DNA from: Bacteroidota bacterium
GTDB taxonomy: Bacteria > Bacteroidota > Bacteroidia > 2-12-FULL-35-15
DNA: 64,000 bases
Direction: 5' to 3'
Assembly: GCA_037131555.1 (NCBI GenBank)
Contig: JBAXQU010000001.1
Location: 1,490-65,489, forward strand
Position 1 is the first letter of the stretch. Each line of letters starts with the position of its first letter. Under the pieces are notes generated by a model that saw only the letters and a list, made by a program, of their open reading frames with translations, was not told the origin of the DNA and searched no databases. A program made the translations under genes and the position numbers. Below, in pieces: positions 26,271 to 46,854 of this stretch.

Positions 26271-26301
26271 TATATAACTAATAATTAAATCATACGAAAA
26301 A

Positions 26302-27785: not shown

Positions 27786-27820
27786 ACGCCTTGGTCGGCT
27801 TTGTAAAAACCATATAAAAA

Positions 27821-28051: not shown

Positions 28052-28076
28052 TCAACATCCATAATTTGATAGATTT

Positions 28077-28104
28077 AAAAGTCCTGATTTTATTCAGGAC
28101 TTTT
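28077..28104. terminator. Bidirectional hairpin terminator
   Basis: aaaagtcctga-ttttat-tcaggactttt, located between convergent genes. Confidence 0.65.
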
Positions 28105-29265: not shown

Positions 29266-29351
29266 TTAAAAGTTTTTTAAAAGTTTTTGTACAAAAGTGT
29301 ACAAAAGTACAACAATTACTTACATAATGAAATTGAGCTATAAATCAGTAT

Positions 29352-30929: not shown

Positions 30930-30939
30930 TTTTTTCTTT

Positions 30940-31227
30940 TTAATTAATTCCTATTGTTAACTCATTCAGTAAACTACTGTATCTGTTTCTCCCTTGAAAT
31001 TCTGAGTTAAATTCTTCATAATCTTCAAATGGACAAGAATCATAATGATTCTCAAATACAGAGTATAGAACGAAATATAAATCTTCAAAAAGCATCAATA
31101 CAGGTTCAGAGTATTTGTTATTGGGCAGTTCAATCACGTTGTGTTCAATTAGAGTTCCTTTTAATTTGATAAGCTCTATAAATTCTGGTAGCGATAATGT
31201 CAATCGCATTAATTCTAAATAAGTCAT
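30940..31227 (-). CDS. Hypothetical protein
   Basis: ORF only, with the start taken at MTYLELMRL. Confidence 0.3.
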   Translation of the reverse strand: MTYLELMRLTLSLPEFIELIKLKGTLIEHNVIELPNNKYSEPVLMLFEDLYFVLYSVFENHYDSCPFEDYEEFNSEFQGRNRYSSLLNELTIGIN

Positions 31228-31232
31228 TTTTA

Positions 31233-31451
31233 TTATTTGTTTTTGTTGTTTATTATTTTTTTGTGGCAAATCTCTGCCAATTTGTATAGTACATTTCGGA
31301 TTAACTCTATTTCAGTATCTGTAAATTGTACACCATTTTTGTTTAATTTTTTCTTGCATTCTGTAATTGAAAGCATTGTTATCAATACCCATTTCTCATA
31401 TTTTTTTATTAGGTAGAGAATTATTCTTTTAAGGTCATAGCTAGACCCCAT
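31233..31451 (-). CDS. Hypothetical small protein
   Basis: ORF only. Confidence 0.3.
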   Translation of the reverse strand: MGSSYDLKRIILYLIKKYEKWVLITMLSITECKKKLNKNGVQFTDTEIELIRNVLYKLAEICHKKIINNKNK

Positions 31452-31650
31452 AGTTAATGTATGAACTTTAAAACCAAAAACACACTGATAACCATGACAA
31501 TAGTAGTATAAATTATACTACCAAACTAATATTTTGATTATTTGCTGAACTAATCCTTTAGGTACTCCACAGGATAGAGGTAATAGTCTTACGTAAACTA
31601 TTTTTTGTTATTCAAAGATACGAATTTTTTAAATAGGATGCAAGTATAAT

Positions 31651-31881
31651 TTAACAACCTATTTCTATAAGTAAGTCCGACACTTTAATTTCAAGAGCCT
31701 CACAAATTCTTTTAAGAACTTTCATTGAAATATTTTGCTCTCCACGCAGTATTCTCCTAATAGAACTTTCATTTATGTTGCAAACATTGGCAAACTCAAC
31801 ATTCGATTTGAATTTTACTTTTGCTTTTTTTGCAATCGCATTACCTAATTTAATAAGAAAGTCCTTATCATTTAATAACAT
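31651..31881 (-). CDS. XRE-family helix-turn-helix transcriptional regulator
   Basis: 76 aa with an HTH_3-like region (FANVCNINESSIRRILRGEQNISMKVLKRICEAL). Confidence 0.6.
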   Translation of the reverse strand: MLLNDKDFLIKLGNAIAKKAKVKFKSNVEFANVCNINESSIRRILRGEQNISMKVLKRICEALEIKVSDLLIEIGC

Positions 31882-31882
31882 T

Positions 31883-31894
31883 GGACAAATGTCC
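31883..31894. promoter_or_regulatory. Candidate operator GGACA-AA-TGTCC
   Basis: Palindrome directly upstream of the XRE gene start, in the divergent region shared with the lipoprotein gene. Confidence 0.3.
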
Positions 31895-31937
31895 GCCCAT
31901 ATTAAAAAACAATCTCGTCATATATGGCGAATAATAG

Positions 31938-31945
31938 TACCTTTG
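31938..31945 (+). promoter_or_regulatory. -7 promoter box TACCTTTG
   Basis: Lies 18 nt upstream of the ATG at 31964. Confidence 0.4.
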
Positions 31946-31963
31946 ACCAATAAATAAAAAAAC

Positions 31964-32584
31964 ATGAAAAAAACATATCCATTACTCTACCTTTTTGGGG
32001 CATTATTAGCAAGCATTACATCTTGTAAGAAAGATGATACTGAACCAACTCGTAGTCCTATCGTAGTAACACCGCCTGTAACAAGTACTGGCAGTGATAC
32101 GATGTATTTTAAAGTTACATTACCTGTAATAACCCCATCTAATATTCCATTATACGGTGATTTTAAATATACAATGTCTAATGTTCACGTTTTCATTATC
32201 CGCAAAGATTCGACAATACACGAAGCAATACCAAATCTTAGTATCATTTATGATGCTAACACTAATCTCACATTTATAAGTAATTTTGATAATACCCCCG
32301 TACCTATTTTAATGAAGGTAGGTGATGGATTATACTTAACTGTAGATTCACTGGAAACATCACCAAATTATCCAAATGGTACTAATATTTTCAAGTTCCC
32401 TTGTTTATGTATTAACAAATCAACACATACTGGTTCACTGGCAGGGTTTTTATACCAAATACCAGTGTTTCCTAATGATTTCACTAATCAAATTTACTAT
32501 GGAAATGGTAGTGATTCTTGGGGTATTGCGTATAATATATGTGTTTACCCACATATAAACACAGTTAGCTTTATAAGACCTTAA
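31964..32584 (+). CDS. Hypothetical lipoprotein (island cargo)
   Basis: Signal peptide with lipobox SITSC. No recognisable domain. Confidence 0.5.
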   Translation: MKKTYPLLYLFGALLASITSCKKDDTEPTRSPIVVTPPVTSTGSDTMYFKVTLPVITPSNIPLYGDFKYTMSNVHVFIIRKDSTIHEAIPNLSIIYDANTNLTFISNFDNTPVPILMKVGDGLYLTVDSLETSPNYPNGTNIFKFPCLCINKSTHTGSLAGFLYQIPVFPNDFTNQIYYGNGSDSWGIAYNICVYPHINTVSFIRP

Positions 32585-32743
32585 CGATACAGGATAAAGA
32601 ACCTCGTATTCCTTTAAATCAACAAACTTCGTATTGTACAGTTAAATGTGCCAAGAATAGGGTATGGTAGAAAACATACAAACTTTTTTTGCGTAAATAG
32701 TGATTATTGTGGTGTATAATTTTGCCACCTTAATAATATACAC

Positions 32744-32751
32744 TATCTTTG
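32744..32751 (+). promoter_or_regulatory. -7 promoter box TATCTTTG
   Basis: Lies 25 nt upstream of the resolvase ATG. Confidence 0.45.
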
Positions 32752-32776
32752 TACCATAATTAAAAAAACATAAACA

Positions 32777-33379
32777 ATGTCAAAAGTAAAATACATTCGC
32801 ACCTCAACCATAGAGCAGAATAATGGTCGCCAGCAAACTAATTCAAATGATTTTAAAAAACTTTACATAGATAAATGTAGCGGTTCAATTAAATTAAGTG
32901 AACGCCCACAAGGGAAAAAATTAATTAAAGACATAGAATCTGGTAACATTACTGAGGTGCATATTAATAGTATTGACCGTCTAGGGCGTAATATAATAGA
33001 CATACTAACTCAAATAGAATTTTTCACAGAACGTAAAATTAATTTGTATGTGGAAAATATCGGAATGGTTAGTATGATAGATAACAAACCTAATCCTTCT
33101 TTTAAAATGATAGTGTCCGTATTAGGTAACGTGGCTGAAATGGAGCGTACTAGTATGCTCGAAAGACAAAGACAAGGTATAGAACTAGCTAAAGCAAAAG
33201 GGACTTATACTGGTCGTTTATATGGCACAAAAATGACTGACGAGGAAACGCTACTAAAATATAAGAGAGTAGCAAAGGCATTAAAAAAAGGGGGTTCCTT
33301 GCGCCTTGCATGTGCGATGGGTGAATGTAGTTTAGGCACTGCTCAAAAAGTGCAAAGGTTATTACGTCAAGTGGCATAA
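32777..33379 (+). CDS. Small serine recombinase (resolvase/invertase family)
   Basis: 200 aa with YIRTSTIEQ (catalytic Ser), SIDRLGRN, VAEMER and a C-terminal HTH. Confidence 0.85.
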   Translation: MSKVKYIRTSTIEQNNGRQQTNSNDFKKLYIDKCSGSIKLSERPQGKKLIKDIESGNITEVHINSIDRLGRNIIDILTQIEFFTERKINLYVENIGMVSMIDNKPNPSFKMIVSVLGNVAEMERTSMLERQRQGIELAKAKGTYTGRLYGTKMTDEETLLKYKRVAKALKKGGSLRLACAMGECSLGTAQKVQRLLRQVA

Positions 33380-33418
33380 ATAATTAAAGGTCATGCCTAG
33401 CATGACCTTTAATTATTT
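33378..33418 (+). terminator. Long hairpin after the resolvase gene
   Basis: Perfect 19-bp arms (aaataattaaaggtcatgc / gcatgacctttaattattt) with a 3-nt loop. Confidence 0.55.
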
Positions 33419-33795
33419 CCCAAAAAACAAAACGCTTCTTTTACACAACCATTGTTTTCGAGGTTTTCAATGGCAAAAACACTATTTTTAAATTAAAACC
33501 ACCTCATTTTGTTTGCTAGAGTAGGTACAAATGGGAACGGTATTTTCTCTTAAAAACTCGAAAAAATATTTTTCGAGGCACATCATACCGCCACTAAAAC
33601 AAAAAATAATTTCGGATATGATAAGGTGGGTAACGCATTCCCGACAAGGTCGGGGGGGCTTATCCTAGTTGCTCTATCCGTTTTCTTATTGTTTGTATTT
33701 CCAATTCTAATTGCAGTTTTCTTAACTGCTTTTGCAGTTCTTGTCGATTTAGTGGCTCACGTTCAACATTAATTTCTAACTGCTTTACTCTAACT

Positions 33796-34005
33796 TTATC
33801 CTCTAGTGTTGTCATGGTTCATCCAGTTAATTAAATACTCTTCATCAAATAGGTCATTAAGCCTATTCTCTCTTTTTAGTAATAAGTATTCCATGTATAA
33901 ATGGTCTTCATCTGTTATCGCTTCCTCTTCATACATTCTCAAAATGTAGTTAGTTAATAGACCCTTTAGTATAGGGTTAAATTCAAAATTTGTAATTTCA
34001 ATCAT
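33796..34005 (-). CDS. Hypothetical small protein
   Basis: ORF only. Confidence 0.3.
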   Translation of the reverse strand: MIEITNFEFNPILKGLLTNYILRMYEEEAITDEDHLYMEYLLLKRENRLNDLFDEEYLINWMNHDNTRG

Positions 34006-34011
34006 CTTCTT

Positions 34012-34518
34012 TTAGTTTATAATGTTCTTTATGTTATTGTTTTCTTTCTGCATATAATTTTTCCATCCTTCAAGGTCATATATATCAGTTTCTTTATAGC
34101 TTATTCGAGAGAATCCTAATCTAAGGCTTTCAATAAGTTTTCTCTTTTGGTTGCAGTTAATGTAACAATGTAAATGGTTTTGGTGGTTAGCTTTCTTTTG
34201 TTCCACCACATAATAAATCTCTAAGTCGGTGTCATTCATATTATCATAAACAAATTTCATTACAGCATCAATATCAGCCTCACTATAATAATTACAGGGG
34301 TCTATGCTTAGTGCATAGTACTTGCTTTTTATTTTGTTCTTAGGGGTGAATTTAGGTAGTAAAAGGTGGTGTACCAACCATCTATTCACCTCATCTTTTT
34401 TAAGTAACTCAGCTGAGGTGGTCGGTTGAATGGACTTAATAATTTTCCTAATATTTCTAATACCAGTCTTATGGTACTTACTTAGTTCTTGTACTGTTAA
34501 GTACTCTTTTTCTATCAT
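34012..34518 (-). CDS. Putative HTH plus HUH-type Rep/relaxase-like protein
   Basis: 168 aa with an N-terminal HTH-like segment (LTVQELSKYHKTGIRNIRKII). It has an HLH (His-hydrophobic-His) triplet in NHLHCYINC and a downstream NYMQK (Y-x-x-K). The motif-level match is weak. Confidence 0.3.
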   Translation of the reverse strand: MIEKEYLTVQELSKYHKTGIRNIRKIIKSIQPTTSAELLKKDEVNRWLVHHLLLPKFTPKNKIKSKYYALSIDPCNYYSEADIDAVMKFVYDNMNDTDLEIYYVVEQKKANHQNHLHCYINCNQKRKLIESLRLGFSRISYKETDIYDLEGWKNYMQKENNNIKNIIN

Positions 34519-34777
34519 ATTCTTTTTCTTTTTATGTATAACAAATCTATTAGCAAGGTAAAAAAGTACCTCACTTTAGTTTGCTTATTTATATATAAGT
34601 ATCTGGGATTTTCCGAAAAGTTCCTTCGGCACGAAAATAATCTATGTAATGGCAACCAATAAAACAAGATGCCTAATAACAAGCGGTTTTGCTCTTGGTT
34701 ATCAGTTTATAAGCATTGGAAAGTTTCTTTAGGTCTTCGATAAAATGGTTCGACAACTCGATGTTAAAGGGTACTAA

Positions 34778-34822
34778 GCCGAACTTTTCGAAGAAATTCT
34801 GAGAAGTTCGGCTTTTATTTTT
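34778..34822 (+). terminator. Strong orphan intrinsic terminator
   Basis: 12-bp stem (gccgaacttttc / gagaagttcggc, one G-U pair), an 11-nt loop and then ttttattttt. There is no plus-strand ORF of 60 aa or more upstream. Confidence 0.5.
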
Positions 34823-34840
34823 ACTTCCTATTTGTTATTA

Positions 34841-34930
34841 GGCATTAGCGAATAGCGAAGGGTCGGGACAGGCGAGGCTCGCAAATCCTGAATAACAAAT
34901 CCTAAATCTAAAAATTCTATCCCGAAGTTT
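34841..34930 (+). repeat. Dispersed intergenic repeat family, copy A
   Basis: Shares ggcaTtagcgaa, gaggctcgca, aaatcctaaatc and cgaagttt blocks with 56584..56768. Confidence 0.55.
34856..34889. repeat. Left arm of a 34-bp perfect inverted repeat
   Basis: cgaagggtcgggacaggcgaggctcgcaaatcct. Its exact reverse complement is at 35446..35479. Confidence 0.85.
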
Positions 34931-35014
34931 CAAGGACTTAGTACTAAATCCTAATTACCAAGTTCTAAAAAGAAGATTTGGCGTTTTGTGATGAAGTTCT
35001 TTGTTTTGTTCTAA

Positions 35015-35439
35015 CAAATTGAAATATATGCACTTTCGGAAGCAAAATGTTATTCAAAAAAAGTGACATATACCATTCCGGATTACGAAATGTGCGCGTG
35101 ACTTGTTACCGAAAACATTCCGAAAACAAAACCATATCCGTAACATGTTACCGAACCTATTCTGAAAACAGAACCCTGTGCGTAACATGTTACGCGGCAC
35201 ATTCCGAAAACGAAACCATATCCGTAACTTGTTACCGAACCTATTCTGAAAACAAAACCATGTGCGTAACATGTTACGCGGCACATTCCGAAATCAGAAC
35301 CCTGTGCGTAACATGTTACACGACACATTCTGTTTCTGGAACCCTATCCGTCACTTTTTCACCTAAAAACTCTCTTTTTTCGATTCTCAAACTCATTTTA
35401 GATGAATATTTGAAAGGATATGTAGGATTTAGGATTTGA
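35015..35439 (+). repeat. 425-bp repeat element, copy 1 (conserved flanks plus internal 42-bp array)
   Basis: Colinear without indels with 46385..46809 (offset exactly 11,370 bp). The 5' flank from aaaatgttattcaaaaaaagtgacatataccattccggattacgaaat is near-identical. It also forms track ORF 35047..35439. Confidence 0.85.
35098..35361 (+). repeat. Tandem array of six 42-bp units plus a degenerate seventh, core palindrome GTAAC-(A/T)T-GTTAC
   Basis: Palindromes start at 35098, 35140, 35182, 35224, 35266 and 35308. Two unit subtypes alternate. Some units extend to the 16-bp perfect palindrome GCGTAACATGTTACGC. Confidence 0.9.
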
Positions 35440-35514
35440 AGATTTAGGATTTGCGAGCCTCGCCTGTCCCGACCCTTCGGGAGCGATTTTCAACTCTGCG
35501 TTCTCTGCGATAAA
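35422..35514 (-). repeat. Dispersed intergenic repeat family, inverted partial copy
   Basis: Its reverse complement (tatttatcgcagagaacgcagagttgaaaatcgct...gaggctcgcaaatcct) aligns with tatttatagctgagaacacagagttaaaaaccgctgaggctcgcagag at about 56.65 kb. Confidence 0.55.
35446..35479. repeat. Right arm of the 34-bp perfect inverted repeat
   Basis: aggatttgcgagcctcgcctgtcccgacccttcg, the reverse complement of 34856..34889. Confidence 0.85.
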
Positions 35515-37149: not shown

Positions 37150-38076
37150 CTACCTTGTATACTTCCGTTCTTGATGGCAAGCTGGAGCGCATGAACCACC
37201 TGTTTCGGTTTGCTGAAAATTCATTCTGAATTCCCAACTTCCAAATCCTACTTTATCTCTTATCAAAGACGGGTTATTGGTTGCGTGCGGATTGTGACAT
37301 ACCATACAACTTCTGCCTTTCTCACCATGTATATGCACAAAGTGTAAATTCTTATCTCCATTTCTGAAACTAGTAGTAGTAGTTTTTTCCTTTTGAACAA
37401 GGTCCATTTCGTGGCATTCCCAACACAATGCAAACGAATCGACATTTACTGGCAAATAATTATTTACAGGGAATGCAAGGTCTAACAAACGTGGATCTTG
37501 AGATGCATGAGGATTGTGACATGTTTTTGAACAATTCTTAAATGGAGGGTGTATTGTTTTTGCTGTCCTCGCTAGCTTATCCATATCGGGTAAAGTTTTC
37601 TTTGGACTCACCACAATAGCTTTATTATGACAACTCAAACATAGGTCTTTTCTTTTTGCTATCACTAGTCCTTTTTCATCTGTCGAATGTGGCGAATGAC
37701 AATTGGTGCACGATTTTTTATCATTTATTACTTTGTGTACAAAAGGTGCGGTGGCGTATAATTTTTTGCTCGTTTCATGACAAGAAAAACATAGGTCGGG
37801 CATTGCTTGTATTAAGTTTATCGCTGTTTTCGGGTGGTCCTGACTTCCGGGAGCGTGGCAATCGGCACAACCTTTATCAGTTTTAGTAATATGTTTAATT
37901 TGTTTTTCTACCAAAGCACCATGACAATCGGTGCATTTCTTGGTAGAAGTTGAATCTGTTTTATGAGGAATAGAATCGTTCGATATGAATTCAAATCCAT
38001 AAGCGGTGTTAACGTTAACAACCATCATCGCCAACAACAGTGCGACAGAGATGATATAGAAGAGTGAGTGTTTCAT
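37150..38076 (-). CDS. Multihaem c-type cytochrome (7 CXXCH plus 2 CX3CH motifs)
   Basis: 308 aa with an N-terminal signal/anchor. Motifs are CTDCH, CADCH, CFSCH, CTNCH, CLSCH, CSKTCH, CWECH, CMVCH and CAPACH. Its start is 2 nt after the stop of the barrel gene. Confidence 0.8.
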   Translation of the reverse strand: MKHSLFYIISVALLLAMMVVNVNTAYGFEFISNDSIPHKTDSTSTKKCTDCHGALVEKQIKHITKTDKGCADCHAPGSQDHPKTAINLIQAMPDLCFSCHETSKKLYATAPFVHKVINDKKSCTNCHSPHSTDEKGLVIAKRKDLCLSCHNKAIVVSPKKTLPDMDKLARTAKTIHPPFKNCSKTCHNPHASQDPRLLDLAFPVNNYLPVNVDSFALCWECHEMDLVQKEKTTTTSFRNGDKNLHFVHIHGEKGRSCMVCHNPHATNNPSLIRDKVGFGSWEFRMNFQQTETGGSCAPACHQERKYTR

Positions 38077-38078
38077 GT

Positions 38079-40070
38079 TTAAAAGTTTCGTGTTACTTGA
38101 ATATAAATTCCTTTGAAAACTGTTTTCGTATTATTATTTTGATTAAAATAAAAGTTAGTTCCACCCGATATAAATAGTTTGCGGAATGATGTTGTCAATT
38201 CTAATTTTGCTGTATGATAATCAAGACTATTCCCTTTCATATTCATTCTTCTGTACATATAATCCAAATCAACTCTCAGATTACGGAACATTGAATAGGC
38301 TAATTTAGTATTCAAAATATAATCCTGTCTTCTTGCATTTTCATCCGTCATTTGATAGTCTATCAAATCTCCATTTATTGTAAAGGTAATTTTACTTAAC
38401 GATTTCTGGAAAGCCAAATAATATTTCATGCCTTGATAAGGAACTATTGTGCTCTTGTAATATTCATACTCTATTCCTCCTCTCATCAGTTTATATTCCA
38501 CTCTTACACCCAACACATGGCGAGTATAATAGTTAAACACTTTACTTTCGGCCACGCTAAGGTCGTTATAATTCTGACTAATAAATCGGTAATAAAAGTT
38601 TAAGATATTATTAAACAAAGCAACATTTCCTGAAAAAGAATGAACATCCAAATTAAATTTATTCGTTCCGCCTTGTGCGGCAGTATAATCTATGTATACA
38701 CTGGAGTTGTTCGGAATATTGCCACCTGGTATTCTTCTAATTTCTATATACGTTCCTTGTACATACAATTCATAATCACCTGAAGTTCCATTCCAACGTT
38801 GATAAATGAAGTTTCCTGTCACATCTTTTACAACAATAGTGTTAATATTCACGTTTGGTCGTTTCAACAAGATGACTTCATTGTCAACCAAAAAATATTG
38901 TTCTCTTACCACTATTACATCAGGACTTGTGGTTGTTATTTTCTGATACTCTTTTGCATAACTATAATTGATGTTTAATGTTCCTCTATGAATCTTTTTA
39001 GTGTAAACCAAATCAATTCCAAAACGATTTCGATGATCCTTATATGCGTCTTTTTGATTGTTTTCTGTGTAGTCATAAAACAATCTGGTTCTTAAACTCT
39101 CGAACAACTGATGAGTTAATGCTGTTTGCACCCATTGTGTATTTACCTTGTATTGATCACCATCTATTTGAGCCCAATTATAAATTCCTGTGAACACAAA
39201 GCGCCTTGGTAACACTATGTTTAAACGCTCATTATCCTGTAGCCTTTTAAATCGATAGGTACCTCTTTCGTCCGAACTAGTTAAATTAGAAGTAAGCGTA
39301 TATCTTTTTTGCTTGTCAACAGAAATATCATTTGTTAGGTCAAAATTATCAAGCGTTGTCAAATAAGTGAATGGTTGATAACCTCCAGAAGACACGCTAT
39401 CGGTTTGAGAACTCTTATTTTCTGTGTGATAATACAGCAAAGTGGTGTGGTCATGTTCAGTGAATGACCTGTTTGCACTCGCATTAAATATCTGTTGGTT
39501 AAGTCTGAAAATTCTATCCGAACCAATTGTTTGCTGTTCCAATTTATTGTTGTTGTATCCTGCTGACATTGGCAGGATCTTATTATTATAATTAGCGGTT
39601 ACCCCGTAATTCCTTGTTTTCGAACGAATCCGTGTAATATTCTCAATATTCTGCAACGTATTATTTAAATTAACAGTTGTATTAAAGTTAAATGCTTTTT
39701 TCTTTAGAAATTGGGCAGAAAAGTCTAATCCACCGCTATTGGATTTTTCGGTATAATCTGGAATTCCAATATAATTATCTCTTCTCGACTGTGGGTTATA
39801 ATCCGCATTTAACCTTACTTCACAGAAATTAGGATGTAAGAAAAAACTTTTTGTTCTTACTTGAAATAATCCATTGAAAAATGCATCGGTTTGACGAACG
39901 CTGTAATCTCCTATTGAATATTCAGACTCCCTGTAATTTCCCCTAAGTAACACTTTCCCAGAAAGGCTAGTAAGTTGCCAGAATTTAAATGCTGTCGCCT
40001 CATTTTGAGCAACAGCAATCATTCTTAACAGAACAAAACTCAACAATAATATGTATTTTCTAAATTTCAA
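38079..40070 (-). CDS. Predicted outer-membrane beta-barrel protein (porin-like partner of the cytochromes)
   Basis: 663 aa with signal peptide ...MIAVAQNE. Rich in alternating aromatic/polar residues (Y, N, T) and has a C-terminal ...VTRNF. It sits between the two 9-haem genes. Confidence 0.6.
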   Translation of the reverse strand: MKFRKYILLLSFVLLRMIAVAQNEATAFKFWQLTSLSGKVLLRGNYRESEYSIGDYSVRQTDAFFNGLFQVRTKSFFLHPNFCEVRLNADYNPQSRRDNYIGIPDYTEKSNSGGLDFSAQFLKKKAFNFNTTVNLNNTLQNIENITRIRSKTRNYGVTANYNNKILPMSAGYNNNKLEQQTIGSDRIFRLNQQIFNASANRSFTEHDHTTLLYYHTENKSSQTDSVSSGGYQPFTYLTTLDNFDLTNDISVDKQKRYTLTSNLTSSDERGTYRFKRLQDNERLNIVLPRRFVFTGIYNWAQIDGDQYKVNTQWVQTALTHQLFESLRTRLFYDYTENNQKDAYKDHRNRFGIDLVYTKKIHRGTLNINYSYAKEYQKITTTSPDVIVVREQYFLVDNEVILLKRPNVNINTIVVKDVTGNFIYQRWNGTSGDYELYVQGTYIEIRRIPGGNIPNNSSVYIDYTAAQGGTNKFNLDVHSFSGNVALFNNILNFYYRFISQNYNDLSVAESKVFNYYTRHVLGVRVEYKLMRGGIEYEYYKSTIVPYQGMKYYLAFQKSLSKITFTINGDLIDYQMTDENARRQDYILNTKLAYSMFRNLRVDLDYMYRRMNMKGNSLDYHTAKLELTTSFRKLFISGGTNFYFNQNNNTKTVFKGIYIQVTRNF

Positions 40071-40095
40071 TTTTACTTAATAAATAGTTTGAACA

Positions 40096-42216
40096 TTACT
40101 TAGTTTTCGAATTAGTTTTTTGTTTGTCAATAGCATTTGTATTTGACTCCGTTTTGGTAGCATTTAAATCGTCTAACCCCTCCAAAATATTGATTGGCCT
40201 AATGAAAGGAGAAATAAATGGTTTCGCTTTATAAATCTCCTCTTCATATATGCTTCTCGGTGCGTATGCCACTCTACCTCTCAATTCGTCTGGATTATAA
40301 ATATATGGTTTGATAAACTGAACTGAAGAGCCTGAATTTGTGCCATTCGAAATTTTCTTACTTGAGTTTGTTTCCTTGACAGAAATACCATTTGGTGTAT
40401 TGATATTCGAATTAGCCACAACATTACTATTGCTATTTTTACTTGTACTACCAATTTGATTATTATTGGAAGTTTTGTTTTTATCTTTAGCATTGGTTTC
40501 TGAATTTGAGTTCGAACCTTGCTTTGTGTTATTCGTTATAACCTTACCATTCGTGGTGTTTTTGTTGGCAGCACCATCTTGTTTAGTAATCGAGGTTTTG
40601 TTCTTATCCCCTGCACTGGTTCCAGTTGTTGAACTAGTAACTTGTTTGGCGTTGTTCGTTACAACCATTCCACTCGTTGTATTTTTGTTTGTATTACTTC
40701 CTTGATTTCTTGCTGAAGTTTTGTTCTTATCACTAGCATTAGTTTCCGAATTTGAACCTTGTTTTATGTTATTCGTTGCAACATTCCCACTTGGATTGGT
40801 TTTGCCAACTGTTCCTCCTTTGTTACTAACAGCATTCTTATTCTTATCATTTATGTTAACCGAAGTTCCTCCTGTTGTCTGTTTAGGATTTTTAGTTGCC
40901 GAAATATTGCTTGCCGAATTTTTGACACCATTACTTTGAGTTGAACCTGAATTTTTCACTTTGTCTGCATTTCCATTATTCTTGCTTCCATTTTGAAGTA
41001 TCGGATTGCCCCATTTACTATCTTTTGCTGAATTATTCAACGAAGCGATTTTATCCTTTTGTGCAGTTATGAATGCTCCATTACCTTTCTTATTACCAGT
41101 TGTATTGCTAACAGAATTAATTTTATTCACGTTATTCGGATTGGTAACATTTTTAGCAATATTTCCTCCAGCCAATTTTGTAGCATTTGTCAATTTACTA
41201 TCCTTTGAAATATTTTTAGTTGATTTAACATTTCTTAAAGAATCAACTCCTTTTTTAGAATTTACGTTTCCTATGCCATTGCCATCAATTGAACCATTTA
41301 CACCTTTAATCAAGGATAATGAATCAGGCCCAGTCTTAGAAAGTATGTTGAGCAGTGTTTTCGTTTTGTATGGTCGTATCGACTCCACTAAAATATCTTT
41401 ATCTTCACCTCCATGAGGGTTATGACATTCGGTACAATTCTTTGTTTTTGCTTTTTTATGTGTAGGAGTTTTAAATACCTGATCAGGATTATGACAGAAC
41501 AAGCATATCTGTTGTGATTCTCGAAGTAACAGTTTTTTAGATTTAACACTATGTGAAGCATGACAACCTCCACAATTTTCAGATACTACAGGGCCATGAA
41601 CAAAATTATAGCGCGAATTAAAATTCTCATGACAATTATAACATGATCCTTTTCTTAAAATTCCTGAATTATCTCCTCCATGAGGGTTATGGCAATCTGT
41701 ACAATTTCTTGTTCCAATTTTTGCATGAATACTATTTTTCAATACTTGCTTTTCTTCATGGCAATACAAACAAATTTGCTGCCCTTCCCTCATCAGTAAT
41801 TTTTCAAATTTTGCTTCATGCTGATTGTGACAAGCAATACAATTACCAGAAATAACAGGCCCATGCAATACTTGATATTTGTCTCCAAAATCGCCATGAC
41901 AAGAATAGCAGAGCTCTGGCATTGGTTTAATTAAACTGTTAGAAAAATCACCCGCATGACAGCTTTTACATTTTTCTTCCGCGTACGGCTTGTGTAAATA
42001 CGACTCTGGCTTGGTAACCACTTGCGTTAATGAGCCAAGTGTATCTTTCTTTTCAGTTTCATTAACATCTGTGTGTTTGCCTGGGTCAGGAACACCATCG
42101 AAAAAAAATGAAAGTACTCGATATTGTTTTTCTGGAGTGCAGCGTACCATAAACATTGCAAGCACTGCAATGATTAGGTAAAAACTCAGAAGTGTTTTTT
42201 TATTGGCACTCTTCAT
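40096..42216 (-). CDS. Nine-haem c-type cytochrome with a long Asn/Ser/Thr/Lys-rich tail
   Basis: 706 aa with an N-terminal signal and Cys26 (possible lipoprotein). It has nine CXXCH motifs between aa 83 and 265. A low-complexity region of about 340 aa follows, then a distinct C-terminal segment of about 75 aa. Confidence 0.8.
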   Translation of the reverse strand: MKSANKKTLLSFYLIIAVLAMFMVRCTPEKQYRVLSFFFDGVPDPGKHTDVNETEKKDTLGSLTQVVTKPESYLHKPYAEEKCKSCHAGDFSNSLIKPMPELCYSCHGDFGDKYQVLHGPVISGNCIACHNQHEAKFEKLLMREGQQICLYCHEEKQVLKNSIHAKIGTRNCTDCHNPHGGDNSGILRKGSCYNCHENFNSRYNFVHGPVVSENCGGCHASHSVKSKKLLLRESQQICLFCHNPDQVFKTPTHKKAKTKNCTECHNPHGGEDKDILVESIRPYKTKTLLNILSKTGPDSLSLIKGVNGSIDGNGIGNVNSKKGVDSLRNVKSTKNISKDSKLTNATKLAGGNIAKNVTNPNNVNKINSVSNTTGNKKGNGAFITAQKDKIASLNNSAKDSKWGNPILQNGSKNNGNADKVKNSGSTQSNGVKNSASNISATKNPKQTTGGTSVNINDKNKNAVSNKGGTVGKTNPSGNVATNNIKQGSNSETNASDKNKTSARNQGSNTNKNTTSGMVVTNNAKQVTSSTTGTSAGDKNKTSITKQDGAANKNTTNGKVITNNTKQGSNSNSETNAKDKNKTSNNNQIGSTSKNSNSNVVANSNINTPNGISVKETNSSKKISNGTNSGSSVQFIKPYIYNPDELRGRVAYAPRSIYEEEIYKAKPFISPFIRPINILEGLDDLNATKTESNTNAIDKQKTNSKTK
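40405..40878 (-). repeat. Four tandem repeats of about 120 bp (about 40 aa) within the cytochrome tail
   Basis: Peptide units ...DKNKTS...NKNTT.G.V.TNN.KQ recur four times (aa about 447-604). Confidence 0.7.
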
Positions 42217-42271
42217 ATAAAAGGTTAGCTGACAATTATAATTGAAATCATACTTTAGCTATTTGTTTGGA

Positions 42272-42279
42272 CAAAATTA
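42272..42279 (-). promoter_or_regulatory. Possible internal -7 box TAATTTTG (minus strand)
   Basis: Plus-strand caaaatta, 55 nt upstream of the ATG at 42216, within the 294-bp gap after the NHL gene. Confidence 0.3.
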
Positions 42280-42510
42280 GACGTATGGATTCAAAAAAAA
42301 TATGATTTACAGCACGTTTTTTAAATAAATTTTTCTTGCTTAATTAATTGTTAAAAATTAAAATAACTTAATGTGGTAAATTTCAAGACCGCTTATACTT
42401 TTAAAATGTGATTTGAAAAAGCGGTGCAATTCCAAACTATTCTTGAGGGATTTTGAAAAACAAATCCTATTCTCTTGAATTAAAATATAACTATTAGACC
42501 TAAGAAGATA

Positions 42511-43665
42511 CTATTTACTTGGAGAAACACCTTTTGGGTCGACTCTACCATAAACATTGATTAAGTCAGGTCCATACTGACTGGTGACAAATATTAGATA
42601 TTTCAAGTCATACGATGGGTCAACATATTTTTCGAAATACTTTTTATTATCGTAATCAATCATCACTTTCGCAGGAATAATCAAATCTCCTGGTCCTTGA
42701 TAATGACCTCCAATAACCAATAGCAACTTACCGTCTTTATTAAATATTTGAACGTGGTCGAAACCAGCATCTACTGCGTAAATATTTGATTCATGATCGA
42801 CCGCAATTCCTTTTAATTTAGAAAATTGCCCTGGACGATCACCGCGAGAACCAATGGTGTCGATAAATTTTCCATCAATCGTATATCGTTTAATCATCGA
42901 ATAACCGAAATCGGCAGCGTAAACTCTATCTCCCTCTACAGCAATATTTGCTGGGATTCCAAGAAAGGCCTTATCCGTTGGTTCAACATCTGGAAAAGAA
43001 TACAACAATTTGTTGGTTGAATCTGCACTATATACATTGATTTTACTAATAGCAGTATTCGCAACAAAAATCTTATCTTGATAGGTCACTACATCCGTTG
43101 GCTTGAACTTTTCTTTTTCCCCAAAACATTTTACATAATTTCCGTTATCATCAAACACCACTATTTCTTGACGGCCAACATCAGCCACGTATAAATACCC
43201 TTTGTCATCTACTGAACAATTTATAGGGGCTCTCAACATTCCTTTTCCTCCGGGACGAAAAAAATGAAAATCTCGAGTTTCTAAATCAATTATTTCCATT
43301 CCTCCACCATATTGGTCGCAAACATAAAGTTTACCTTTGTGAATTGAAATTCCATAAGGCTTCACCATGGCTTTTGCTTTTTCTTGTCCAAGAATTAATT
43401 TGGATAAAAAAGATTGTTTCTTTCCAAGGTCGGCAGAACTAGTAATTTTGGTTAAAAATTGTATTCGAGCTTGCTCTGGAGGAGTAGGATAAATTACAAG
43501 AGGCTTAGTATTGTCTTTTGTGTTAGCCACCTTGTTGGCATTGCACCCTGCAAAAACAAACATTGTAATAAAAGCGAAAATCCAAAAACTGTAATTAACG
43601 GAGTTTGTTGCACGAAAAAGAATTAAATTGTTTTTCATATTTTTCGAGAACAGATGATTATTCAT
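42511..43665 (-). CDS. NHL-repeat / six-bladed beta-propeller lipoprotein
   Basis: 384 aa with lipobox VFAGC. Repeated blades follow the pattern ...P.GIA.D..G.IYVAD.....I..F. An alternative start is at 43638. Confidence 0.65.
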   Translation of the reverse strand: MNNHLFSKNMKNNLILFRATNSVNYSFWIFAFITMFVFAGCNANKVANTKDNTKPLVIYPTPPEQARIQFLTKITSSADLGKKQSFLSKLILGQEKAKAMVKPYGISIHKGKLYVCDQYGGGMEIIDLETRDFHFFRPGGKGMLRAPINCSVDDKGYLYVADVGRQEIVVFDDNGNYVKCFGEKEKFKPTDVVTYQDKIFVANTAISKINVYSADSTNKLLYSFPDVEPTDKAFLGIPANIAVEGDRVYAADFGYSMIKRYTIDGKFIDTIGSRGDRPGQFSKLKGIAVDHESNIYAVDAGFDHVQIFNKDGKLLLVIGGHYQGPGDLIIPAKVMIDYDNKKYFEKYVDPSYDLKYLIFVTSQYGPDLINVYGRVDPKGVSPSK

Positions 43666-43683
43666 AATAGATTTTTTAGAGTT

Positions 43684-43715
43684 AAAAAAAAGGGCGAAAA
43701 TTTTATATTTCGCCC
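43684..43715 (-). terminator. Hairpin with T-run after the tetrahaem gene (terminator or attenuator)
   Basis: On the minus strand, gggcgaaa-tataaaat-tttcgccc is followed by tttttttt. Confidence 0.5.
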
Positions 43716-43746
43716 TCCAAAAGTATCAAATTTTTGTTGTTCTGTA

Positions 43747-44463
43747 TTATTTTTTGTGGCAAGCCAAGCAAAGTGCAGAACCTCTGTTATCCATACTTAA
43801 TTGATAACCTCTGCTATTGCTGTGTGCACCATGGCAAGAAGTACATTGTACTTTTCCTGCACCATCCAATTTTGTTGAAACCGCTCTTCCTGAAGTAATG
43901 TAACCTGATCCTGCTGCAGAGTTGAAGTTGTTGTAGATATAAGTAGGTGTATGAAGACCTCCTCCAACTGCTGAGTCATAAGGAATAGAAATTGGGTGGT
44001 CGTTACGTAAATCTGTTGACAACAAAGCTCCACCTGTTAATGGTGTACCTAAGTTTTGTCCACCGTAAGCTCCTAAAGCAATAGAACCATCATGGCAAGA
44101 TAAACATAATTTAGAAGTTCCATCCGGTGCAGTTACGCCATAACCAGTGTAAACTCCTGAAACTAAAGTACCAAAATCAAAACCAGTGTACATTTGATAT
44201 GCAGCAGTAGTAAATTGGTGATTCCACAATGGAGCGTCTGTTACAGTCAAATCTGCATTGTGTGGTGTGTGACAAGGTTGGCAAATTTGACCTCCTTGCA
44301 TTGTGGTAGCATTGTATGTGTTCCATACTTGTGTTGAAAAGTTGTGAGGTAAACCCGCAACAGTTAAAGATGATCCAGTTACCCCAGGACCAAGGGTACT
44401 TTGTGCGATGCTCATTAAAGGTATCATTAACCCTAATGCAGCTGAAATGATTAATTTTTTCAT
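43747..44463 (-). CDS. Tetrahaem c-type cytochrome, secreted
   Basis: Starts at MKKLIISAALGLMIPLMSIAQ (signal peptide). It has four CXXCH motifs (CQPCH, CLSCH, CTSCH, CLACH) and a PLWNH motif after the first haem site. Confidence 0.75.
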   Translation of the reverse strand: MKKLIISAALGLMIPLMSIAQSTLGPGVTGSSLTVAGLPHNFSTQVWNTYNATTMQGGQICQPCHTPHNADLTVTDAPLWNHQFTTAAYQMYTGFDFGTLVSGVYTGYGVTAPDGTSKLCLSCHDGSIALGAYGGQNLGTPLTGGALLSTDLRNDHPISIPYDSAVGGGLHTPTYIYNNFNSAAGSGYITSGRAVSTKLDGAGKVQCTSCHGAHSNSRGYQLSMDNRGSALCLACHKK

Positions 44464-44804
44464 GACTTTTTTGTTTTTATTTGTTATTATTTTTTTGTTT
44501 TTTGAATCGCCACCATGACAATTCCATGACACAAAGGTCTGCACATTTTTTGAACGAAATACTGACCTTTGTCAGTTGAAATCGTGTTTTTTCGCAGGTT
44601 TTTTCATGCGAAATCGCAGGTTTTGAAAATAAATTGGTGGCTAGAACATCTATAATGCTTTGGTAGCAAGGCATTGGGAAAATAGTAGTAAATATTCCTA
44701 ATTTGTTAAAATCGCCATTTTGATTTAAAAAAAAGTGTAATCTTGCACCAATATTTTTTATATTTTTCATAAAATTTATTCTAAATATAAGTTTTGAAAG
44801 CCTT

Positions 44805-46415
44805 ATGATTAAACGTTTCAGCAAAGATATAGATATTTTTTTCAATTCTTCAAAAGAAAATAAAAATATTTTTTTTAATCTATTACAACCTTTTTTATTG
44901 GTTTTCGTGTTCGTATTAACCTATATCTATATATATGACTCGAAACTGGACTTAAACGGTGACAATTTTGAGTATATCAATCTTGCTAAGTCGATGGTAC
45001 AAGGGAAAGGATATGCCTTGCCATATACTAACGATTTCCCTCCTTCCAATTGGTTTCCGCCTGGCTATTCGAGTTTACTTGCCGGCATCATGCTGATAAT
45101 GGGCACAAGCATAAGTACATTAAAAATAATGAATGGACTCTTGTTCTTGGCTGTTATACTCATTATGTATAGACTCATTATTATATTGTATACTAATAAG
45201 GCGCTTGCTTTCACTTTAGCCTTGTTGATTATTCTCAATTGTGGACTATTGAGGTTTTCCACCATCATTATGTCCGAAATTCCTTATCTTTTCTTCACAT
45301 TACTTACCTTTTATTATGTTACAAAAGTGAAAGAAGAGATTCCCTTCTATAAATCGAAGTATTTTTATGGAGTTCTTTTATCCTCGGTAGCTACTTATTA
45401 TCTAAGAAACATTGGCATTGTGCTGGTAGGAGCCATTGCCATGCATTGGTTGCTCGAAAAAAAATGGAAACAAGCGGGGGTATATATTATAGGGTTTGTG
45501 CTTTTATATCTTCCTTGGATAATTCGAAATTCGATGCTTGGGCTCCAAAGCCGTTACGTAAGCACAATGATGGCAGCGAATGCTTGGCGGCCAGAGCAAG
45601 GTGAGCTGAACACAGTTGGTAGTTTTTTAGATAAAATGTTTACCAACTTTGTTGACACCGTGATAAAGGGATTTGCTGAGGTGGTATTCCCATTTATCAA
45701 CCCTAATGAAACTCCTAGCATTTTACTCATTGGCAGTGTGGTGCTTATCCTCACTTTTATTGGTGCATGGAAATTGAATAGATACCGAACTTTGTTTTTG
45801 TTCTATCTACTTGGCAATATTGCTATCTTTCTGGTGTGGCACGAAGGTAATTCTTCGCGATATGTATGGCCACTTGCGCCTTTTCTTACCATTTGTCTTT
45901 TTGGTGGAGTGTATCAAATGATTGTTAATTTGAATGAAAAACAAAAAAAATTGGTGCCTCATTACCTTCCTTACCTATTGCTGCCATTGGCGGTATTAAA
46001 TGCTTTTGGGTTGAAACAAATACATGCCATGGCCATGGAAAAGGATTACGAACCTGCATACAGAAATTACTTTGATATGGCAGATTATGTAAAAAAACTA
46101 AACAATAACCAACTCGTGGTGGCTTGTCGGAAGCCTGGGATGTTTCATTATTTTTCGGATGGATTTGTAACTAATTATAAGGATACCGAAAGCGACCGTG
46201 AACTAATAACTGATCTTATTGACAAAAAAGTGGACTATTTAGTGCTCGAAAAACTGGGGTATAGTTCGGTGTATCGGTATCTGCGACCTGCCGTTGAAAA
46301 GAATCAGGATTTATTTCAAGTTGTGTATTTCAAGGAAAATCCGAATACTTTCCTTTTGAAGTTTGATATTGAAAAAGCAAAAATCAAATTGAAATACATA
46401 CACTTACAGAAATAA
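44805..46415 (+). CDS. GT-C fold membrane glycosyltransferase (ArnT/PMT-like, GT39/GT83-like)
   Basis: 536 aa with about 10-12 TM segments and an early periplasmic-loop acidic motif (LDLNGDNFEY). Its last codons run into the 5' flank of repeat copy 2. Confidence 0.55.
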   Translation: MIKRFSKDIDIFFNSSKENKNIFFNLLQPFLLVFVFVLTYIYIYDSKLDLNGDNFEYINLAKSMVQGKGYALPYTNDFPPSNWFPPGYSSLLAGIMLIMGTSISTLKIMNGLLFLAVILIMYRLIIILYTNKALAFTLALLIILNCGLLRFSTIIMSEIPYLFFTLLTFYYVTKVKEEIPFYKSKYFYGVLLSSVATYYLRNIGIVLVGAIAMHWLLEKKWKQAGVYIIGFVLLYLPWIIRNSMLGLQSRYVSTMMAANAWRPEQGELNTVGSFLDKMFTNFVDTVIKGFAEVVFPFINPNETPSILLIGSVVLILTFIGAWKLNRYRTLFLFYLLGNIAIFLVWHEGNSSRYVWPLAPFLTICLFGGVYQMIVNLNEKQKKLVPHYLPYLLLPLAVLNAFGLKQIHAMAMEKDYEPAYRNYFDMADYVKKLNNNQLVVACRKPGMFHYFSDGFVTNYKDTESDRELITDLIDKKVDYLVLEKLGYSSVYRYLRPAVEKNQDLFQVVYFKENPNTFLLKFDIEKAKIKLKYIHLQK

Positions 46416-46809
46416 AATGTTATTCAAAAAAAGTGACATATACCATTCCGGATTACGAAATATGCGCGTCACTTGTGACGGAGGACATTACGAAAACAAA
46501 ACCCTATCCGTCTCTTGTGACATGACACATTACGAAAACAAAACCCTATCCGTCACTTGTGACATGACACATTACGAAAACAAAACCATGTCCGTCACTT
46601 GTGACACGACACATTACGAAAACAAAACCATGTCCGTCACTTGTGACACGACACATTACGAAAACAAAACCCTATCCGTCACTTGTGACCCGACACATTC
46701 TGTTTCTGGAACCCTATCCGTCACTTTTTTACCTAAAAACGCTCATTTTTAGATTATCAAAGTCGTTTTAGAGGTATATTTTAAAGGAGAAGTAAGCTAT
46801 TAGATTTGA
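46385..46809 (+). repeat. 425-bp repeat element, copy 2
   Basis: Colinear with 35015..35439. Also forms track ORF 46417..46752. Confidence 0.85.
46468..46731 (+). repeat. Tandem array of six 42-bp units plus a degenerate seventh, core palindrome GTCAC-TT-GTGAC
   Basis: Palindromes start at 46468, 46510 (one mismatch), 46552, 46594, 46636 and 46678. Confidence 0.9.
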
Positions 46810-46854
46810 GAAGCTAGGACACAAAACAAGTTTGATGGATGAGTTCAGCCTATT

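Follow-up and report, generated by a model that had tools for sequence, protein, structure and literature searches.

In the sopC centromere of plasmid F a unit of 43 bp is repeated 12 times in tandem, and SopB binds the short inverted repeat that each unit contains. The antitoxin arrays of type III toxin-antitoxin systems include ToxI, with 5.5 repeats of 36 nt. CsrB and RsmZ are multi-hairpin decoy RNAs with a GGA loop motif. The REP elements of enterobacteria, which are associated with RAYT transposases, are imperfect palindromes that alternate in orientation and have GTAG as a conserved end. In the Bacteroidota we know of few characterised non-coding RNAs and of no described BOX-like repeats. 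The BOX elements of Streptococcus pneumoniae and S. suis are composed of boxA, tandem boxB modules and boxC (PMC3049150).

Here we describe a 425-bp element, present in two copies in a 64,000-nt stretch of DNA (the window) from an uncultured freshwater Bacteroidota bacterium. It is a new non-coding repeat and not a peptide gene, and in architecture it appears closest to the BOX elements of streptococci. The two copies are colinear without a single indel, as the first-pass annotation had stated (copy 1, 35015-35439; copy 2, 46385-46809; pairwise alignment). The element opens at its 5' end with a short leader and a conserved head, continues with five or six 42-nt modules in tandem, and closes with a conserved tail and a 3' region; the order of head, tandem internal modules and tail was confirmed by alignment of seven elements and by TRF. 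Its main parts in the window are:

35013-35447, + strand: copy 1 (alignment, nhmmer), upstream of and co-oriented with a 10-bladed beta-propeller gene
35096-35330, + strand: copy-1 array of six 42-nt modules (TRF periods 42, 84 and 126; unit table; pattern count)
44805-46415, + strand: gene for a GT-C (PMT/ArnT-like) glycosyltransferase of 536 aa (weak Pfam PMT match; source names of homologues), its 3' end entering copy 2
46383-46817, + strand: copy 2, whole extent of similarity to copy 1 (alignment; nhmmer match 46383-46781; comparison with related locus L047 and with C-termini of GT-C homologues)
46467-46699, + strand: copy-2 array of six 42-nt modules (TRF period 42, 5.5 copies, 93% matches; unit table; pattern count)
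46696-46730, + strand: copy-2 tail CATTCTGTTTCTGGAACCCTATCCGTCACTTTTTT, identical in all relatives and pairing with the head
46731-46817, + strand: copy-2 3' region, about 85% conserved (alignment)

Copy 2 has no promoter of its own, and the GT-C gene takes its last 10 codons and its stop from the first approximately 30 nt of this copy. The modules of copy 2 consist of the palindrome GTCAC-TT-GTGAC (46468-46479, 46510-46521, 46552-46563, 46594-46605, 46636-46647 and 46678-46689) followed by the linker ACATTACGAAAACAAAACC, and in the tail the linker of the last module is replaced by head-complementary sequence, which terminates in a left half-site and a T-run. The 3' region may hold a -7-like box, read by eye as TATATTTT in copy 2 and as TATATTTG in the related loci L028 and L039. 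In copy 1 the palindromes are of the form GTAAC-WT-GTTAC (starting at 35098, 35140, 35182, 35224, 35266 and 35308), and TRF detects an 84-nt higher-order repeat within the array. The sequence GTMACWTGTKAC occurs 14 times in the window (10 sites) against an expectation of 0.06. Whole 42-nt units repeat, each with one dyad-symmetric site (TRF, unit table), and the 42-bp spacing, equal to four helical turns, is constant in all alleles. A CRISPR array was rejected because entire units repeat and unique spacers are absent. Phased A-tract curvature was dropped on reasoning alone, without calculation: the two A4 tracts of each unit are separated by 5 bp, or roughly half a turn of the helix, and their bends should therefore largely cancel.

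A reading frame is open through the array in both copies, and a secreted glycopeptide had been considered, and doubted, in the first-pass annotation. The ATG at 46417 does sit 1 nt past the stop of the GT-C ORF, D-T-T is present in two units, and copy 2 has TAG at the position of TCG in copy 1, with similarity extending past that stop; N-K-T, claimed for every unit, was found in five of the six. The doubt proved right, since the relatives carry stops, a lost start and a frameshift: the L028 type is interrupted by TAA at codon 17 and again in each module, and has 1 nt inserted; L038 reads ATA where the ATG should stand; and L063/L064 have TGA at codon 12. Neither start, stop nor reading frame was found conserved among relatives, and third-position substitution bias is absent, the substitutions between copies 1 and 2 being distributed 21/16/19 over the codon positions (p = 0.71). 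A search of 5.8 billion proteins with the 111-aa ORF returned no homologue, the window's own ORF not even being a called gene there, and a scan of 185,579 genomes with the back-translated peptide gave 37 pattern matches and no relatives. Pfam had no match for copy 1 and for copy 2 only marginal, repeat-driven matches, none of them convincing; no record identical to the window's GT-C product or its 102-aa product was found.

The element is known from at least three loci, at unrelated intergenic sites, where the downstream gene encodes a secreted beta-propeller (Pfam PF21734, 10-bladed, in the ORF downstream of copy 1) or an unrelated secreted protein, or is a convergent gene. Six elements have six modules, and one allele has five. 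Modules inside one element are 77-93% identical, and positional orthology of linkers between elements was not found; homogenisation of the palindromes only was rejected on this ground, such orthology between copies being its expected sign. The leader and 3' parts differ by about 15% between copies, compared with a nearly invariant head, tail and linkers. In sister strains the array has been swapped within flanks that are 96-100% identical. At the copy-2 site these strains have an unrelated cassette instead; it too is a 42-nt array, equal in period and copy number, and it has a 21-bp direct sub-repeat (GAACGAWTTAAG) and no significant RNA fold. The element is missing from orthologous loci of 72% and 59% identity, its distribution is narrow, and elements are located at rearrangement or replacement breakpoints. 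When genomes were scanned for the periodic linker pattern, 35 loci were obtained, and of five inspected or scored one, L028, is a true relative. No match was returned by blastn against plasmids and phages, and four viral-contig scans (head, tail, periodic linker pattern and L047-type unit) detected no relative. With Rfam 15, only a tRNA reached the gathering score in the window, and nothing over the elements was found at E <= 1.

The first-pass annotation had described a symmetric switch from copy 1 to copy 2, A to C at position 3 and T to G at position 10 of the palindrome, in all units. The switch holds for nearly all of them, the two exceptions being copy-1 unit 1 (35098), where GTGAC..GTTAC gives a G.T, and copy-2 unit 2 (46510-46521), where GTCTC..GTGAC leaves one mismatch. 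Related metagenome/MAG contigs supply both the five-module allele and a third arm type, AAACCAC-TT-GTGGTTT, which is symmetric too, so that every one of the three arm types is symmetric. The first-pass annotation had named asymmetric half-site combinations in further copies as the refuting outcome, and only rare asymmetric units were found, one of them a hybrid, GTCAC..GTTAC, in the degenerate-looking five-module allele. Across 23 distinct modules, which represent just three independent arm types, 87.5% of cells are paired vs. 29-47% in slid controls, and 5 of 8 pairs of outer arm positions have changed on both sides, none of 500 shuffles doing as well. The arms vary, in contrast to the fixed CWTG centre, A-rich linkers, head and tail. 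The outermost arm pair alternates C-G with U.G, which pairs on the + strand only. To account for the symmetric change, the first-pass annotation had proposed either paralogous dimeric DNA-binding proteins or conservation of a stem. Of these the stem is the better supported, on the strength of the arm co-variation, the invariant centre, the wobble pairs confined to the + strand, the head-tail helix described below and the finding, by Pfam on flanking ORFs, of no candidate regulator gene adjoining either copy; the protein reading is kept as a rival.

Head and tail contain the complementary stretches A7GUGAC / GUCACU5-6, AUA/UAU and UUCCGGA/UCUGGAA. The helix that they form, enclosing the modules, was recovered by MFE folds of both copies and by the RNAalifold consensus. 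Its strands are:

35056-35067, + strand: copy-1 head strand of the closing helix, pairing with 35350-35359 (fold)
35350-35359, + strand: copy-1 tail strand of the closing helix, GTCACTTTTT (fold, RNAalifold)
46426-46437, + strand: copy-2 head strand of the closing helix, AAAAAAAGTGAC, pairing with tail positions 46720-46730 (MFE folds; RNAalifold columns 46-55 with 339-348)
46446-46452, + strand: copy-2 head TTCCGGA, pairing with tail TCTGGAA at 46705-46711 (RNAalifold columns 64-70 with 324-330)

The head is invariant in all relatives, and the TTCCGGA/TCTGGAA pairing includes a G.U, possible on the + strand only, which is GU in six of six. Whole-element folds of the + strand have z-scores of -5.8 and -4.8. 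Against an RNA stand the minus strand, whose folding is no worse (z -4.7 and -7.3), the weakness of single module hairpins (-1.1 to -7.3 kcal/mol, z-scores not significant), a mismatch in the stem of some modules and two uncompensated changes in the head-tail helix of the five-module allele. A basal helix AUGU/ACAU beneath each hairpin is kept in most units, with two compensated cells, but it is broken in CCCUAUCC units and is therefore not claimed.

A promoter-like site precedes the element at three of the four loci (copy 1, L028/L041 and L039), with the motif TTTG-N19/20-T[A/T]nnTTTG at the same offset. In the window it is:

34977-35008, + strand: Bacteroidota-type promoter-like site, TTTG-N20-TTGTTTTG, ending 5 nt before the copy-1 core (regex scan; alignment)

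The site in L039 is perfect (TTTG-N19-TAAATTTG). In promoterless copy 2, similarity to the other copies appears to begin just where a transcript start would be expected. Counting against an RNA, the terminator scan found no canonical intrinsic terminator. Scans for sigma-70 promoters and terminators gave nothing over shuffled expectation except a conserved TTGAAA-N18-TAAAAT, the relevance of which in Bacteroidota is doubtful.

On balance, we consider it probable, by a modest measure, that the element is a BOX-like composite repeat which is transcribed into a multi-hairpin RNA and the arms of which are homogenised by concerted evolution of the array. Each module would form a short hairpin, with the palindrome arms as stem and the invariant C-W-U-G as a loop of the CUUG tetraloop type, followed by the conserved A-rich linker ACAUUMCGAAAACRAAACC, and the complementary head and tail would close the hairpin domain. 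The difference between copies 1 and 2 would then be a compensatory double substitution in the stem, present in all modules because a tandem array evolves in concert, by unequal exchange or conversion, and not by six independent changes. Judging from the sequence features, the + strand would be the one transcribed: copy 1 and two other loci would use a sigma-A type promoter of Bacteroidota whose end lies 5 nt ahead of the core, and copy 2 would be part of the 3' UTR of the GT-C gene. The RNA may act as a multivalent scaffold or decoy, which is the least certain step; the repeated loops and the sequence-conserved linkers could be reiterated sites for one RNA-binding factor, and the stems would need only to pair.

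Rather unlikely, in our estimate, is that the array acts as double-stranded DNA, the palindromes being operators for a dimeric DNA-binding protein that places six dimers on one face, in the manner of sopC or of an iteron or silencer array, with a cognate protein for each arm type. Perfect dyad symmetry retained through two-sided changes, a period of exactly 42 bp in all alleles and one sequence common to all sites of an element would suit such an array, as would module hairpins too weak to convince as RNA and the island with three recombinases that abuts copy 1. The replacement cassette at the copy-2 site, with its 42-bp period and 21-bp direct sub-repeat, would suit it too; the identical period and copy number of a cassette with no significant RNA fold suggest a constraint on the period at the level of DNA, or of 14 codons, and speak against an RNA. 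Operators of dimers, however, usually have fixed outer arms and a variable centre, the reverse of what the element has. Three arm types would also need three cognate proteins, and no regulator adjoins any copy, nor were genes for ParB, SopB, Rep or a partner ATPase found by Pfam in the ORFs flanking both copies or in the gene tables of related loci. In duplex DNA neither one-sided variation from C-G to T.G nor the G.U within the helix of head and tail would make sense, and the head-tail complementarity and the upstream promoter are left unexplained. That the element is instead a selfish or neutral interspersed repeat, MITE-like or BOX-like and without function for the cell, also seems unlikely to us, slightly more so. 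Its hairpins would be kept for copying or moving, e.g. as single-stranded DNA hairpins recognised by a transposase in trans, or the palindromes would persist only through duplication along with the module. The scattering over at least three unrelated intergenic sites, the position at breakpoints, the variation between five and six modules, the narrow distribution and the REP-like hairpins nearby all agree with this, and such is the general behaviour of BOX, REP and ERIC elements (PMC3049150). Against it, the outer ends have no target-site duplication or terminal inverted repeat, few copies are known compared to about 100 BOX copies per genome, and a promoter is conserved at the 5' boundary; moreover, a head, tail and linkers that are nearly invariant beside leader and 3' parts differing by about 15% suggest purifying selection on parts of the element.

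The swaps between sister strains allow a further reading, which we regard as improbable, namely that the 42-nt arrays are exchangeable specificity cassettes, modules of about 430 bp swapped between strains within identical flanks at a polymorphic recognition locus. Period and copy number would be fixed and the repeated recognition sequence would be under diversifying selection. The palindromes would let each type recognise itself, through the pairing of RNA with RNA (from module to module or from molecule to molecule) or by way of a binding protein that co-evolves with them. If true, this would be a previously undescribed kind of polymorphic recognition locus and not a passive repeat. Translation of the open frame into a repetitive peptide of 14-aa repeats, possibly glycosylated by the adjacent GT-C enzyme, is largely refuted, and we find it hardly credible. 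The open frames, the ATG next to the GT-C stop, the N-K-T and D-T-T motifs and a 145-aa ORF that gene callers place on the unrelated cassette in L047 would fit it. Opposed to these are the disrupted frames of the relatives and the absence of homologues, signal peptide and codon-position bias. Similarity also runs on past both ORF ends, chance alone often keeps a frame open when the period is divisible by three, and several further frames are open on both strands.

The favoured BOX-like RNA shares with BOX elements the nature of a composite, interspersed non-coding repeat, the mutual pairing of a conserved head and a conserved tail, tandem modules (about 45 nt in BOX, 42 nt here) in an array that folds largely on its own, an intergenic position, co-transcription with neighbouring genes (predicted here) and a module number varying between strains (PMC3049150). 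The likeness is drawn from the architecture, and it spans different phyla. Unlike BOX, with about 100 copies, the element is known from at least three loci, its module number is nearly fixed at six, its modules are palindromic, with compensated changes distinguishing the arms of one copy from those of another, and its own promoter is conserved at the 5' boundary. REP elements and BIMEs of enterobacteria likewise form intergenic clusters of short palindromes with conserved linkers between them, and they too can lie between convergent genes and at gene 3' ends; here, in contrast, the palindromes are perfect, in direct tandem with a fixed 42-nt period, and set inside a head-tail frame, and no RAYT was identified. 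As in sopC, the units are in tandem, span about four helical turns and contain one short palindrome each, all palindromes of an array being alike. The element, however, is chromosomal, intergenic and present at several loci with no partition genes nearby, and nothing in sopC corresponds to its head-tail complementarity, its promoter or its strand-specific wobble pairs. Type III antitoxins also have non-coding repeats, of 34-48 nt, that follow a promoter in a short tandem array, but after the array described here neither a ToxN/AbiQ-like gene nor a terminator was found. CsrB and RsmZ resemble it in their many reiterated short hairpins with a conserved loop motif, single-stranded linkers, a length of a few hundred nt and a promoter of their own. 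They differ in that the loop here is CWUG and not GGA and that the element is an exact tandem array with identical stems, matched by no Rfam family. The element would be a compact and clearly delimited example from the Bacteroidota, with co-variation evidence built in. Through concerted evolution in a tandem array, a compensatory change in a stem can mimic a coordinated switch of six binding sites, which calls for caution when operator arrays are read from the sequence only. Arrays are replaced while their flanks stay nearly identical, also by an unrelated array of equal period, and this suggests that turnover is rapid.

Copy 1 is bracketed by an inverted repeat of which just two copies exist in the window:

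34856-34893, no strand assigned: left arm of a 38-nt inverted repeat, a REP-like GC-rich hairpin element (repeat search, 97% complementary)
35442-35479, no strand assigned: right arm of the same repeat (repeat search)

Among the related loci, L037 has the right arm and L028, L036 and L040 lack it. A 168-aa ORF beside copy 1 (34012-34518), with an H-L-H motif, was tried as a candidate Rep or RAYT and rejected, having no match in Pfam, NCBIfam or PDB. The two copies, 11.4 kb apart and in direct orientation, bracket a large multihaem cytochrome cluster, and they could mediate its deletion or duplication.

The two window copies of the approximately 425-bp element, w1 (35015-35439) and w2 (46385-46809), align without a single indel, and each carries a 42-nt tandem array:

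35096-35330, array of w1, with six 12-nt palindromes
46467-46699, array of w2, with six 12-nt palindromes

The palindromes of w1 read GTAAC-(A/T)T-GTTAC, with a deviating first module (u1, GTGAC..GTTAC), and those of w2 read GTCAC-TT-GTGAC, with a deviating second module (u2, GTCTC..GTGAC). The sequence GTMACWTGTKAC occurs 14 times (10 sites) against 0.06 expected in the window, and is confined to the two arrays. On the evidence of the alignment and the unit sequences, the symmetric, compensated palindrome switch described in the first-pass annotation is real, with small corrections. Equally borne out were the position of the ATG (46417), 1 nt past the stop of the 536-aa ORF for a GT-C (PMT/ArnT-like) glycosyltransferase, and the TAG of w2 where w1 has TCG, with similarity extending past that stop; the N-K-T sequon ascribed to every unit is present in five of the six.

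Scanning DNA for patterns and looking up proteins encoded nearby yielded relatives solely from uncultured freshwater Bacteroidota. They occupy three loci:

Locus orthologous to w1, between valS and the 10-bladed beta-propeller gene: L028, L036, L037, L040-L044
Locus orthologous to w2: L038, L063, L064, L066, L067
Third locus, between a TonB-dependent receptor gene and a secreted-protein gene: L039

Orthologous loci whose propeller is 72% identical, or whose GT-C is 59% identical, lack the element, so the family is young or narrowly distributed. Downstream of a 59%-identical GT-C orthologue (L050:4570-4660) there are two GC-rich hairpins (CCGAGGCAGAGCCTCGGGG) and no 42-nt array; this hairpin is another small REP-like family, of a related lineage. 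In the alignment all elements have one plan in common:

Leader, about 40 nt
Head, TTCAAAAAAAGTGACAYATACCATTCCGGATTACGAAAT, ending in a right half-site
Modules, six (five in L063)
Tail, CATTCTGTTTCTGGAACCCTATCCGTCACTTTTT, starting with a left half-site
3' region, about 85 nt

A third arm type, AAACCAC-TT-GTGGTTT, is found at the w1 locus of other strains and in L039; relative to w2 it has gained two pairs and carries two more compensated exchanges, T-A to C-G and G-C to A-T. Across 23 distinct modules, standard pairs fill 87.5% of cells and five of the eight pairs have changed on both sides (e.g. AU 12, GC 11, zero unpaired), the outermost alternating between C-G and U.G. None of 500 shuffles matched the observed pairing or co-variation, and sliding the partner by 1-3 columns lowers pairing to 29-47%; the signal rests on three independent arm types. 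The centre C-W-T-G, the linker, the head and the tail are near-invariant. CUUG is a classical stable tetraloop. A typical dimer operator conserves its half-sites and leaves the centre free; here the arms vary and the centre does not, which is the pattern of a stem-loop and the opposite of such an operator. Of the two readings first offered, dimeric DNA-binding proteins or a conserved stem, it is the stem that best explains the data. Asymmetric half-site combinations do exist, in the window copies and in relatives, but they are rare, being mostly single mismatches (w2 u2, L028 u3 and u5, L039 u6), besides the G.T of w1 u1 and one hybrid, GTCAC..GTTAC, in a five-module allele.

Head and tail are complementary in three segments, A7GUGAC with GUCACU5-6, AUA with UAU, and UUCCGGA with UCUGGAA, the last of which holds a G.U that pairs on the plus strand only. 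The tail owes its complementarity to the last module, where CTGTTTCTGGAAC takes the place of the usual linker CCGAAAACAAAAC. A closing head-tail helix is predicted by MFE folds of w1 and w2 and by RNAalifold, and the sole head variation among six-module types (T/C after GTGAC) lies within a predicted internal loop.

Loci that are otherwise unrelated (w1, L028/L041 and L039) share a predicted promoter of the Bacteroidota type, TTTG-N19/20-TAnnTTTG, placed at one common offset so that it ends 5 nt ahead of the core; L039 matches perfectly (TAAATTTG), the others with a single mismatch (TTGTTTTG). The promoter is lacking in w2, whose similarity to other copies begins approximately at the start expected for a transcript from it, and whose first 30 nt supplant the native C-terminus of the GT-C (KIKLKYIHLQK here vs. 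KIKFNYG... in homologues). Being promoterless and set between convergent genes, w2 would be transcribed as a 3' UTR. In the five-module allele of this locus (L063:2874-3230, L064, L066) the otherwise invariant head carries two uncompensated substitutions and the last palindrome is the hybrid of both window types, which fits relaxed constraint at a promoterless site. At the other end, the conserved 3' region closes with a -7-like box oriented towards the gene that follows:

35395-35403, w1, AATATTTG
46773-46780, w2, TATATTTT
L028:~1305-1312, TATATTTG
L039 ~727-734 (minus strand), TATATTTG

In L039 the ATG of the next gene follows 4 nt past the box, and because of this arrangement the element may donate a promoter to its downstream gene.

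Modules inside one element are 77-93% identical, and linkers of different elements are as similar at different positions as at the same position, i.e. positional orthology is absent. As w1 also carries an 84-nt higher-order repeat and L028 u3 and u5 have an identical mismatch, the arrays evolve in concert. Once one module has acquired a compensated variant of the stem, the variant spreads across the array, so that six independent switches need not be invoked. A comparison of the window with L040 gives ~96% DNA identity for the propeller gene and ~90% for head and tail, but only 55-65% for the array, and the arm types differ. In strains with a 94%-identical GT-C, the w2 site holds a wholly different cassette of ~430 bp (L047:6588-7020, also in L048 and L065, corresponding to window 46392-46812), with flanks that stay 100% identical over >100 nt to either side. 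This cassette has its own 42-nt array (5.8 units of ACGATTTAAGTACTAAATGGAACGAATTAAGACATGACACGA, 21-nt sub-period GAACGAWTTAAG), its own head-tail inverted repeat (GACGATTTATG / CATAAATCGTC) and an open 145-aa frame, called as an ORF, with KWNELRHDTNDLST repeats; its RNA fold is not significant. Since arrays and cassettes differ within near-identical flanks, they are exchanged or replaced by recombination, and the replacement polymorphism is intriguing.

We consider stem co-variation the best explanation of the symmetric change, with concerted evolution having carried it into every module. The element itself is taken to be a new BOX-like composite that does not code for protein and is probably a structured RNA. 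Confidence in the RNA itself is only slightly better than even: taken singly, the module hairpins have little stability (-1.1 to -7.3 kcal/mol, no better than shuffles), inter-module duplexes compete with local hairpins in the folds because all arms are identical, the minus strand folds equally well or better, and no canonical terminator was seen. A phased protein-binding DNA array is rather unlikely given the arm pattern, and is kept in consideration mainly because unrelated cassettes have the same period and copy number. That these are functionless mobile or recombining repeats we regard as unlikely.

Very improbable is that the frame encodes a peptide, and a peptide-coding gene was rejected. 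The commonest allele at the w1 locus has a TAA at codon 17, repeated in every module, and a frame-shifting 1-nt insertion in module 1; ATA replaces ATG in L038, and the five-module allele has a TGA at codon 12 (L063, L064 and L066). The 56 differences between w1 and w2 are spread 21/16/19 over codon positions (p = 0.71). With a 42-nt period chance often keeps a frame open, and further frames are open on both strands. Among 5.8 billion predicted proteins there is no homologue of the ORF, and the window's own ORF is not called as a gene in that set.

The closest known architecture is that of the streptococcal BOX elements, composed of boxA, tandem boxB modules and boxC, in which A pairs with C and B folds alone (PMC3049150). 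The present element differs in coming from another phylum, in the few copies known, in a nearly fixed module number, in palindromic modules with type-specific compensated stems, and in its own predicted promoter. A sopC-like centromere, a type III toxin-antitoxin array and CRISPR were considered and rejected for want of partition genes, a toxin gene and spacers, respectively, and no Rfam family fits; plasmids, phages and viral contigs likewise gave no match.

In the window, w1 adjoins a ~10.7-kb genomic island (24.2-34.9 kb) beside tRNA-Leu(CAA), where other strains have valS upstream of the element:

24065-34900, genomic island, ending at the left inverted-repeat arm next to w1
25479-26222, S24-peptidase-like repressor
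28105-29265, tyrosine integrase
29352-30929, large serine recombinase
32777-33379, small resolvase (second serine recombinase)
34856-34893 and 35442-35479, 38-nt GC-rich REP-like inverted repeat on both sides of w1, with no further copy in the window

The inverted repeat could make a 548-bp segment invertible; it is polymorphic between strains, the right arm being present in L037 and absent from L028, L036 and L040. Divergent from w1 is a 168-aa ORF (34012-34518, minus strand) whose H-L-H-C-Y motif recalls HUH enzymes; it has no Pfam, NCBIfam or PDB sequence match.

The two copies flank, in direct orientation, an 11.4-kb multihaem cytochrome cluster. A metagenome contig of ENA sample ERZ1426699 has the gene order 536-aa gene, 583-nt gap, 10-bladed propeller, DUF493 and cytochrome gene, a junction expected either from w2-w1 recombination, which would yield a circle or duplicate the 11.4-kb segment in tandem, or from an assembly mis-join at the repeat. 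A second rearrangement breakpoint at an element boundary is found in L037, a 59-kb contig, because downstream of the element (L037:100-240, minus strand) it departs from the propeller context of L036 and L040. Within the cluster, 37150-44544 encodes multihaem (CXXCH-rich) cytochromes, an NHL/beta-propeller protein, a 663-aa putative outer-membrane protein and a 706-aa cytochrome, the last with a long N/S/T/K-rich low-complexity region containing a 123-nt tandem repeat (40469-40757).
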